DNA of 64,000 nucleotides from a phage. The notes under the pieces were generated by a model, which had not been told where the DNA came from, ran no database searches, and worked only from the letters and a program-made list of their open reading frames with translations. The DNA lies in the sequence record PZ386951.1; one strand, written 5' to 3'. Positions within the stretch are counted from its first letter, which is position 1; each line of letters opens with the position of its first letter. The translations under genes were made by a program, and so were the position numbers. Below, in pieces: positions 21,856-23,250 of this stretch.

Positions 21856-22635
21856 TTAATTAAAAATATATACTTCATCAGTTCCATTCTTTTCTTTTGA
21901 ATGATATATGTTAAAGACATATTTTTTATTAAGATGCTTAACATTGTATTTTTTAGACCATTCTTTAAGAAGAGTGTTTTCCTTTCCGTGATGCTCTAAA
22001 ACATTCGACAGTCCAAATTTTATTCCTCTGTCATTTAAAGAATCTAAAAGATTTAAAAGGTCTTTTTCTTCTTCTTCTGACCAAAATTTATTATAATCAG
22101 CAACTGTTATGAGATACGGAGGATCTACATATACAAAATCGCCGTCTAAAATTTTAACATCTTTAAAATGCAATGAACTAAAGATTATTTTATCACAATT
22201 TTGTTTAAAGTGATTAAAGCGTTTTTCACTATTTTTGTTTATAGTTCTTTTTCCAAACGGAGTAGTAAAATTTCCTTTATCGTTTATACGAATCATATTA
22301 CTAAATCCGTGAAAATGAAGAACATAAAGTAAAAGAGGATCTCTAGTTTTATTATAATCTTCACGTAATTTCAAAAACTCTTCTTTTGATGTTTTTGATA
22401 GTTTATATTGCTTTATTACTTTTAAAACGTCATCCCATGATACATTAATAAGACGCTTATACATTTCAATAATTGGTTCTTGAATATCATTGGCCAATAC
22501 AGGACCATTGACGTTCAAAGACACTGATAAACCTCCACAAAATAAATCTACGAATCTGTCATATTTTGGAAAATGAGGCTTAAGTTCAGGTAATAATGAC
22601 TGTTTATTACCTGTATATGCGATAGCTCCTAGCAT
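21856..22635 (-). CDS. dam: Dam DNA adenine methyltransferase (GATC)
   Basis: 259-aa ORF with DPPY catalytic motif ([15 protein letters not shown]) and N-terminal AYTGNK / FCGG SAM-binding region; same length as T4 Dam. Confidence 0.9.
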
Positions 22636-23195
22636 TATATTCTCTCATTTATTGCAGCAAAAAACGAATTATACAATTCTTCATCATATGTATTTGATAG
22701 TAATACTAACACGTTTTGTGATTTAGCATATTCATTAAACCTTGCTTGGATAGTTGGATTATCAGTAAATGATTCTCTTTTTGTCCATTTATTACGTGGA
22801 TAATATCCGCATGGCAAAAAATCTAATATCATCAATGATACGGGGTTTTCAGTTTTTGTGTATTCTTTTAATTTCTCTTTATCTTCTAAATATATTCCAA
22901 CCGAATCAATAGCTGTACCTCCACCAACTTGATGTTTAATTTCAATTATATGCTTTTTACCATTGCGAGAAATAACAATATCAAATCTTCTAGTACGCTT
23001 CTTAGTTATAAAATTCGAACAAAATAAATTATTTGATTTTTCAGTATCATCGGTTAAAACCATTTTTTCTTGATAACTAACTGAACAATCAGTGAAATAT
23101 TCTTTTACTTTATTAAGTATGAAATTTTCAACTACGGCAGATATTTTATATGAATCTCCGTTTAAAGCCATTTCATGCACAATTTTATTAATCAT
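22635..23195 (-). CDS. hypothetical protein (186 aa) with PD-(D/E)xK-like motif, translationally coupled to dam
   Basis: Stop overlaps dam ATG (TAATG); motif [21 protein letters not shown] (D...E.K); GAGGA RBS; early promoter upstream. Confidence 0.55.
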
Positions 23196-23220
23196 TATAT
23201 CATCCTCAGCAATTTATTTT

Positions 23221-23250
23221 ATAATACCATAACAAGCTGAGAAAGTAAAC
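23221..23250 (-). promoter_or_regulatory. T4-type early promoter for the 186-aa ORF / dam operon
   Basis: ATAATACCA at 23221-23229, GTAAAC at 23245-23250. Confidence 0.6.

Follow-up and report, generated by a model that had tools for sequence, protein, structure and literature searches.

The Dam enzymes of phages T2 and T4 are among the most studied DNA methyltransferases and are routinely called orphan; to our knowledge, it has never become clear what they do for the phage. Is this solitary state the original one, or did the methylase come with a partner? The question is raised by a 64,000-nucleotide (nt) stretch of phage DNA (sequence record PZ386951.1; the whole stretch is hereafter called the window), a segment of a Tequatrovirus (T-even) genome in which dam is directly preceded by a gene of 186 codons, here named X. 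Over the X-dam region, the window is 97-98% identical to other phages (e.g., ESh24 and HY03). We consider it moderately probable that X and dam make up an early-transcribed, phage-borne cassette resembling a type II restriction-modification (R-M) system, in which X is a putative GATC nuclease and Dam is protective. An initial annotation, made by a model from the DNA letters and their translations, had read X as a nuclease in a restriction-modification-like module with Dam, and this reading is supported by the analysis presented here.

The X-dam operon

Both genes are encoded on the minus strand, where the order is 61, orf66 (itself on the opposite strand), X, dam, and 56. The features of the operon are listed below by window coordinates, strand, and description (aa, amino acids).

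22635..23195, minus: gene X (186 aa), PD-(D/E)XK type II restriction-endonuclease-like, phrog_8706, without a Pfam family
21856..22635, minus: dam (259 aa), Dam-family D12 GATC N6-adenine methyltransferase (Pfam, NCBIfam, PADLOC)
22633..22637, minus: TAATG stop/start overlap from X to dam (sequence)
23221..23250, minus: candidate T4-early-type promoter of the X-dam operon (consensus scan and sequence)
23203..23207, minus: Shine-Dalgarno sequence GAGGA, 7 nt before the X ATG (sequence)
22902..22991, minus: catalytic and probable recognition core of X, R69-S98 (invariant alignment columns, model)
22980-22982, 22941-22943, 22935-22937, and 23127-23129, minus: X codons D72, E85, K87, and E23, respectively
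22114-22125, minus: coding positions of the DPPY motif of dam

On the minus strand, the junction of the two genes reads ...GAGAGAATATAATGCTA. The stop codon TAA (22637-22635) and the start codon ATG (22635-22633) have one base in common, and the TAATG overlap is predicted to couple the translation of X to that of dam. Upstream of X, the hexamer GTTTAC (23250-23245) is followed by TGgTATTAT, a TG-extended -10 element (TATTAT at 23226-23221), with a spacing of 17 nt as counted between the scanner's hexamers TTTACT and TATTAT. The arrangement GTTTAC-17-TGnTATnAT, together with a purine-rich Shine-Dalgarno sequence, is kept upstream of X homologues in seven divergent lineages, and this element presumably acts as an early promoter. 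The initial annotation had pointed to a 186-aa open reading frame (ORF) with a stop overlapping the dam ATG, to a 259-aa Dam with a DPPY motif, and to an early promoter and good ribosome-binding site upstream. The first was found again in the ORF list and the sequence, the second agrees with the family matches given next, and the third corresponds to the promoter-like element and GAGGA just described. Dam matches Pfam PF02086 (E=6.5e-51), NCBIfam TIGR00571 'dam' (E=1.4e-69), and the orphan methyltransferase model of PADLOC (E=1.6e-183).

X appears to be more than a chance reading frame, since it matches phrog_8706 ("unknown function") over its full length (E=5.7e-116), has homologues down to 27% identity, and shows low ratios of non-synonymous to synonymous substitution (dN/dS). 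In pairwise Nei-Gojobori comparisons, dN/dS was 0.10-0.20 for X in pairs with unsaturated dS and 0.12-0.14 for dam; one X pair differs by 8 synonymous and 0 non-synonymous changes. Judged by these values, X is under purifying selection. The family is tiny. Exhaustive searches with hidden Markov models in sets of 1.84 and 5.8 billion proteins gave about ten homologues with 27-99% identity; the search of 1.84 billion representatives returned 11 proteins, all of them phage homologues or fragments, and the 5.8-billion profile search was concordant. Two further X loci were found in IMG/VR. Three products were set aside as artefacts, one being a repeat protein of 765 aa (P0016) and the other two chimeras from contig ends (P0010 and P0008). 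Neither of the two large searches gave a sequence bridging X to a known restriction endonuclease family, and no Pfam or NCBIfam family matches X above threshold, the NCBIfam matches being noise only. No description of the X ORF was found in the literature searched. In the GenBank record of phage Shinka, one of the features of the 61-56 region is a "putative restriction endonuclease".

Fold and catalytic residues of X

The structure of X was modelled with AlphaFold2 from a shallow alignment of 7 sequences, with a mean predicted local distance difference test score (pLDDT) of 79.4 and a predicted template modelling score (pTM) of 0.77. The model contains a helix at residues 15-33, strands at 38-48, 66-77, and 80-88, a second helix at 92-104, and a strand at 119-124, which is the alpha-beta-beta-beta-alpha-beta core of the PD-(D/E)XK superfamily. 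Structurally, X most resembles orthodox type IIP restriction enzymes, above all MunI (PDB 1D02), with 12% sequence identity. Weaker Foldseek matches to the PDB and to the viral models of BFVD are nucleases of the same superfamily. At the level of sequence, the X protein and a 9-sequence profile gave zero matches at E<=10 against the sequences of solved structures.

In an alignment of nine sequences reaching down to 27% identity, the invariant residues are E23, D72, E85, K87, H88-Q89, and G93-T-A-I-D-S98. E23 lies in helix 15-33, D72 in strand 66-77, and both E85 and K87 in strand 80-88, and these four probably form the canonical PD-(D/E)XK catalytic set. The initial annotation had quoted a 21-residue string, found here at X residues 68-88, and had proposed for it a D...(D/E)xK core, to be checked by structure prediction; the core now resolves into D72...E85-x-K87 on strands 2 and 3, and the predicted structure and its Foldseek matches place it in a nuclease fold. 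The block formed by H88-Q89 and G93-T-A-I-D-S98 sits at the start of the helix that follows strand 3, and may be a recognition element, as is generally the placement in EcoRI-class enzymes.

X could also be an inactive PD-(D/E)XK protein or one with a function other than restriction, for instance regulating dam as a DNA-binding protein, acting as a nuclease in repair or recombination, or nicking DNA like MutH, in which case the adjacency to dam would reflect operon history. The conservation just described makes this quite unlikely. The invariance of all four canonical catalytic residues down to 27% identity, under purifying selection, speaks against an inactive scaffold, and MutH and Sau3AI-type proteins are absent from the listed structural matches. 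Moreover, X has stayed linked to dam through three genomic relocations, and operon history alone hardly accounts for this.

Linkage of X to dam

This linkage is the strongest evidence for the proposed role of X. Every X homologue with readable surroundings is located immediately upstream of a D12/Dam methyltransferase gene, and the following contexts were seen.

61 - orf66 - X - dam - 56: Tequatrovirus and related metagenomic contigs
rIIB - denB - X - dam - ndd: Klebsiella Jiaodavirus phages (X 41% identical)
X - dam - rIIA: an unclassified T4-like contig with the 27%-identical homologue P0014
X - dam alone: two short contigs

The X stop and the dam start abut or overlap by up to 35 nt in nine of the ten lineages tabulated, and in ten of eleven when all lineages compared are counted. 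The exception is T2, in which the loss of 1 nt in a T-run shifts the frame, so that X ends at 181 aa and a gap of 13 nt separates it from dam. The identities of the two proteins to those of the window drop in step (72, 71, 61, 55, and 53% for Dam versus 57, 63, 41, 32, and 27% for X), which fits a long joint inheritance. The coupling to dam noticed initially in the window alone is thus a property of all homologues with readable context, in three genomic neighbourhoods, and the pair has the arrangement of an R-M system, X adjoining the Dam gene with one conserved early promoter upstream.

The linkage and the co-translation with dam fit a Dam that makes the substrate of X as well as a Dam that protects from it. 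In the former case, X would be a DpnI-like (type IIM) nuclease that depends on methylation, or would read hemimethylated DNA. Dam would produce its substrate, e.g., fully methylated GATC in the cytosine-containing DNA of the host, the hydroxymethylcytosine (hmC) DNA of the phage would be immune, and X would help to break down the host chromosome. In the Klebsiella phages the cassette adjoins denB, which encodes a cytosine-DNA-specific nuclease, and enterobacterial host DNA, which is already GATC-methylated, would offer an immediate substrate to a methyl-dependent enzyme. However, the model of X consists of a single, catalytic domain, with no additional winged-helix domain to read methyl-adenine, and the pattern of decay described in the next section also disfavours a DpnI-like enzyme. 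We consider this explanation very unlikely.

Distribution among T-even phages

The following counts of records are based on BLAST coverage classes, with duplicate laboratory strains included and X counted at >=80% coverage. X is present in 147 phage records and the X-dam junction in 148, and this dam (>=90% nucleotide identity) is found in 182. In about 31-33 records, dam is accompanied by a remnant of X; these are T4 and its kin (T4T, RB55, RB59, and ELT1). The T4-type deletion took the promoter and X codons 1-158 and left an 85-nt 3' remnant before dam. In the T4 record (AF158101), the remnant is located at 2480-2585 and comprises codons ~159-179, equivalent to window positions 22635-22720. 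The initial annotation had tentatively stated that T4 has no gene at this position, and it was right, as the T4 spacer between 61 and dam holds only this 21-codon 3' remnant. The dam gene of the window is 97-98% identical in nucleotides to those of T2 and T4.

Other changes in X were also seen. The deletion of 1 nt in the T-run, close to the end of X, is common to T4 and T2. The frameshift alters the C-terminus of the T2 protein (…SFLLQ and stop, 181 aa) and may impair it. In phage G29 (MK327940, 901-1460), X is split by a frameshift into ORFs of 46 and 142 aa and dam is intact, which represents either a second independent inactivation or a sequencing error. No record with X and without dam was found among the megablast-level relatives and the about ten divergent loci, and among the megablast-level relatives the methylase can persist alone. 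A nuclease that is lost first, a methylase that is retained, and a nuclease that never occurs alone are the classical footprint of an R-M pair, as far as genome comparison can tell. By the same comparison, the solitary dam of T4 is a derived state left by deletion.

Among the 504 records that match the 61/orf66 end, about 320 have neither X nor dam (RB51/RB32-type). Here the ~1.44-kb cassette is cleanly absent between the Shine-Dalgarno sequence of orf66 and the (early) promoter of gene 56, and RB51 2774-2846 is the empty equivalent of window 21810-23285. This type of indel is reminiscent of the promoter-bounded module shuffling described for T4-type phages. The flanking genes in the window are the following.

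23483..24511, minus: gene 61, primase (ORF list and Pfam)
23286..23486, plus: orf66 (66 codons, on the strand opposite to gene 61, X, and dam; phrog_2024, E=8e-31)
start near 21810, minus: gene 56, dCTPase

The product of orf66 is hydrophobic. The gene has a strong AAAGGAGG Shine-Dalgarno sequence; it and gene 61 are convergent, with an overlap of 4 nt at the end of gene 61. In T2 and RB51, orf66 has been annotated ('RB32ORF030w / RB69ORF029w-like'); T4 has the sequence with an intact ATG, unannotated in AF158101. A hairpin resembling a terminator, ATGGCATTAACAAGTGCCAT and then a T-run (23301-23320, minus), is located inside the coding sequence of orf66, a short way upstream of the X promoter, and may end the gene-61 transcript ahead of the early promoter of X-dam. 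On the other side, gene 56 of the window phage is directly followed by soc (20951-21810 region). Between 56 and soc, T4 has the homing endonuclease gene segF (T4 3426-4880 region) and T2 has soc.1 and soc.2. Because this interval differs among the three phages, the 56-dam neighbourhood is a hot-spot of accessory-gene turnover.

Such a setting brings to mind a homing-type endonuclease. The main role of X would then be to spread the X-dam pair. It would cut the DNA of co-infecting relatives that lack the cassette, at or near the unoccupied orf66/gene-56 junction, and repair would copy the cassette into them; Dam would be a passenger or serve for self-protection. The clean ~1.44-kb presence/absence polymorphism with its exact borders, the occurrence of the cassette in three genomic contexts, and the location in a known homing hot-spot, with segF of T4 between 56 and soc, are all consistent with homing, and homing enzymes of the PD-(D/E)XK type exist. 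However, X is unlike the GIY-YIG and HNH families of the T4 seg and mob genes (no Pfam or PHROG match to either domain was found in X), a methyltransferase is not the usual companion of a free-standing homing endonuclease, and the nearest structural matches of X are orthodox type IIP restriction enzymes. This makes a homing enzyme distinctly unlikely. It should also be considered that the two explanations overlap, as an R-M pair that acts on co-infecting genomes also drives its own spread.

Sequence relationship with named restriction-enzyme families

Several candidate families had been suggested for X at the outset. The suggestion of DpnII/MboI was borne out in part, by repeated matches that stay below threshold, whereas Mrr and VRR-NUC gave no matches. 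Mrr, VRR-NUC, MutH/Sau3AI, and DpnI were rejected as closest relatives, none of them being among the sequence matches or the listed structural matches. Pfam DpnII (PF04556) matches X of the window with E=0.0045 and 16.8 bits, and three of its homologues with E=8.3e-5, 9.3e-4, and 2.4e-3. In these four of the nine members, the match always covers profile positions 143-235 of 278; the other five give none. The best score (22.5 bits, homologue P0009) lies below the gathering threshold of 23, and X has no counterpart of profile positions 1-140. The PADLOC model REase_II PDLC03548 (290 positions) matches three of the nine members in the region equivalent to the DpnII match, with a best E of 5.3e-6. 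The sub-threshold signal suggests a restriction-enzyme catalytic core that leans to DpnII/MboI and falls short of family membership. Pfam MunI (PF11407) gave no match to X at E<=1, and the likeness to MunI is structural only.

The surroundings of Dam outside phages were also considered. In bacteria, the nearest relatives of T-even Dam (37-55% identity) mostly belong to type IIS-like systems, where they adjoin AlwI-family, FokI-domain, or Bpu10I-type nucleases, often with tandem or fused methylases. On 6 of the 119 matching plasmids, the neighbours of Dam homologues are enzymes of the AlwI or FokI type, or hypothetical proteins without annotation, and at 80 bacterial loci they are mostly type IIS enzymes of ~600-700 aa. 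None of 622 ORFs neighbouring bacterial Dam homologues matches the X profile; ten further candidate ORFs proved to be FokI, Bpu10I, recombinase, and similar proteins. There was no DpnII-type gene among the neighbours examined on the 6 plasmids and at the 80 loci.

GATC content and DNA modification

GATC is the most under-represented of the 256 tetranucleotides in the window (1-64000), with 70 occurrences versus 214 expected from trinucleotide frequencies, an observed/expected ratio (O/E) of 0.33. The next lowest tetranucleotide is CTTA (0.58) and the next palindrome TCGA (0.60). RB51 (1-50000), which has neither dam nor X, is similarly depleted (O/E 0.29). The bases flanking the 70 sites in the window show no preference and no hint of a longer recognition site. 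The depletion fits a long-term selection against GATC in T-even genomes, exerted by MutH, by host DpnII-like enzymes, or by X-type nucleases, causes which these ratios do not separate. The region 21000-24600 has two GATC sites, and one of them (22122) lies inside dam, arising from the GAT-CCT codons of the DPPY motif.

According to the annotation of the T4 record, Dam acts on 'modified or non-modified cytosine DNA'. T4 DNA carries 0.4% N6-methyladenine (PMC7653180). By rough arithmetic, this is about equal to full methylation of the depleted GATC sites of T4.

Proposed mechanism and target

How might such a cassette work, and against what? We infer the nuclease activity of X, its GATC specificity, its sensitivity to methylation, and its target as follows. 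X would be a small endonuclease, structurally of the EcoRI/MunI class, which, as a homodimer with Mg2+, cuts unmethylated GATC or a site containing GATC; by analogy with the MunI/EcoRI-like fold, it may leave 4-nt 5' overhangs. It is probably specific for GATC, or for a site containing it, and blocked by adenine methylation. Dam would methylate the GATC adenine in both cytosine and hydroxymethylcytosine DNA, and the phage's own genome would in this way be protected. With the nuclease gene first and the stop and start codons overlapping, the methylase would be translated whenever the nuclease is. The cassette would be accessory, lost as a whole (RB51-type) or with the nuclease lost first (the T4 deletion, the G29 frameshift, perhaps the C-terminal frameshift of T2), and the loss of the nuclease would leave the well-known 'orphan' Dam of T-even phages.

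The most plausible targets would be GATC-unmethylated DNAs within the infected cell, e.g., those of co-infecting T-even relatives without dam or of other under-methylated replicons. They are favoured, though as a specific idea at low probability, because most Tequatroviruses do not have dam, and because a methylase would be needless if hmC alone protected the phage. The biological target is nonetheless the weakest link of the proposed explanation.

Several observations weigh against an R-M-like role. There is no obvious substrate for X, as enterobacterial host DNA is already Dam-methylated. A requirement of X for methylated substrate DNA would equally lead one to expect the strict linkage to dam. 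X is dispensable, being lost in T4 and absent from most Tequatroviruses, and its model, derived from the shallow alignment, has low-confidence loops at residues 53-56 and 91-93. All matches to named restriction endonuclease families are below the curated threshold and confined to the catalytic beta2-beta3 region, weaker BanI matches fall on the same stretch of X as those to DpnII, and GATC specificity therefore cannot be read from homology. X also does not have the N-terminal ~140 residues of DpnII-family enzymes. Finally, T-even DNA contains glucosyl-hmC, which blocks most type II enzymes (PMC7653180).

There is also a bolder version. In it, X-Dam is a phage-versus-phage weapon, with X cutting GAT(hm)C in glucosyl-hmC DNA and so destroying or converting the genomes of co-infecting T-even phages without Dam. 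We regard this as unlikely. If it were true, a dam kept alone, as in T4, would give immunity, T-even Dam would have a function, and a new mechanism of inter-phage exclusion would be at hand; X might also add to the roughly three-fold depletion of GATC. An X that cuts hmC or glucosyl-hmC DNA would possibly be a useful enzyme.

Comparison with known systems

Structurally, X is closest to the MunI/EcoRI-class type IIP enzymes (PDB 1D02; PF11407), at the 12% identity and without the Pfam match mentioned above. However, MunI recognizes CAATTG and has its own, different methylase, whereas X is paired with Dam (GATC). By sequence, the nearest family is DpnII/MboI (PF04556), with enzymes that are specific for GATC and blocked by N6-methyladenine; it is the only named family matched repeatedly by X, below threshold. 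Enzymes of this family are, like X, encoded beside Dam-family methyltransferases, as in the DpnII, MboI, and LlaDCHI systems. X differs from them in being about 100 residues shorter, and in gene order, which usually has the methylase first in DpnII-type systems and the nuclease first in X-dam. The DpnII/MboI family was assigned to the PD-(D/E)XK enzymes by mutagenesis (PMC2441816).

The closest functional precedent is R.CviAI/M.CviAI of chloroviruses, in which a lytic virus carries a GATC-specific PD-(D/E)XK nuclease along with a GATC adenine methylase; for X, such activity is predicted. R.CviAI, of the PD-(D/E)XK type, has no relationship with the MboI and Sau3AI families (PMC2441816). The structural search of BFVD gave no significant match of X to a chlorovirus protein. 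The two situations differ also in the host, as CviAI acts in a eukaryotic alga whose DNA is the substrate of the nuclease, whereas the host DNA of T-even phages is already Dam-methylated.

Dam of T4 and T2 is known as an 'orphan', but in the window phage and in about 80% of the phage records with this dam, it is the second gene of an X-dam operon. The comparative data point to a nuclease-methylase operon as the natural state, from which the T4 used as laboratory reference is derived by deletion. The loss of X from T4 would explain why the partner gene does not figure in the T4 literature and went unnoticed. The textbook orphan Dam of T-even phages can thus be recast as the remnant of a phage-borne R-M cassette, which makes its function testable. 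If X is active, directed at GATC, and sensitive to methylation, it would represent a new family of restriction enzymes, confined to T4-like phages in the databases searched, and an R-M system in a phage that is virulent and has hypermodified DNA. The target of such a system would then be a testable question as well, be it rival phages, under-methylated plasmids or prophages, or replicating host DNA. By class, X-dam is best placed as a type II R-M-like pair with a new family of restriction endonucleases; a virus-borne GATC nuclease with its methylase is already known in CviAI.

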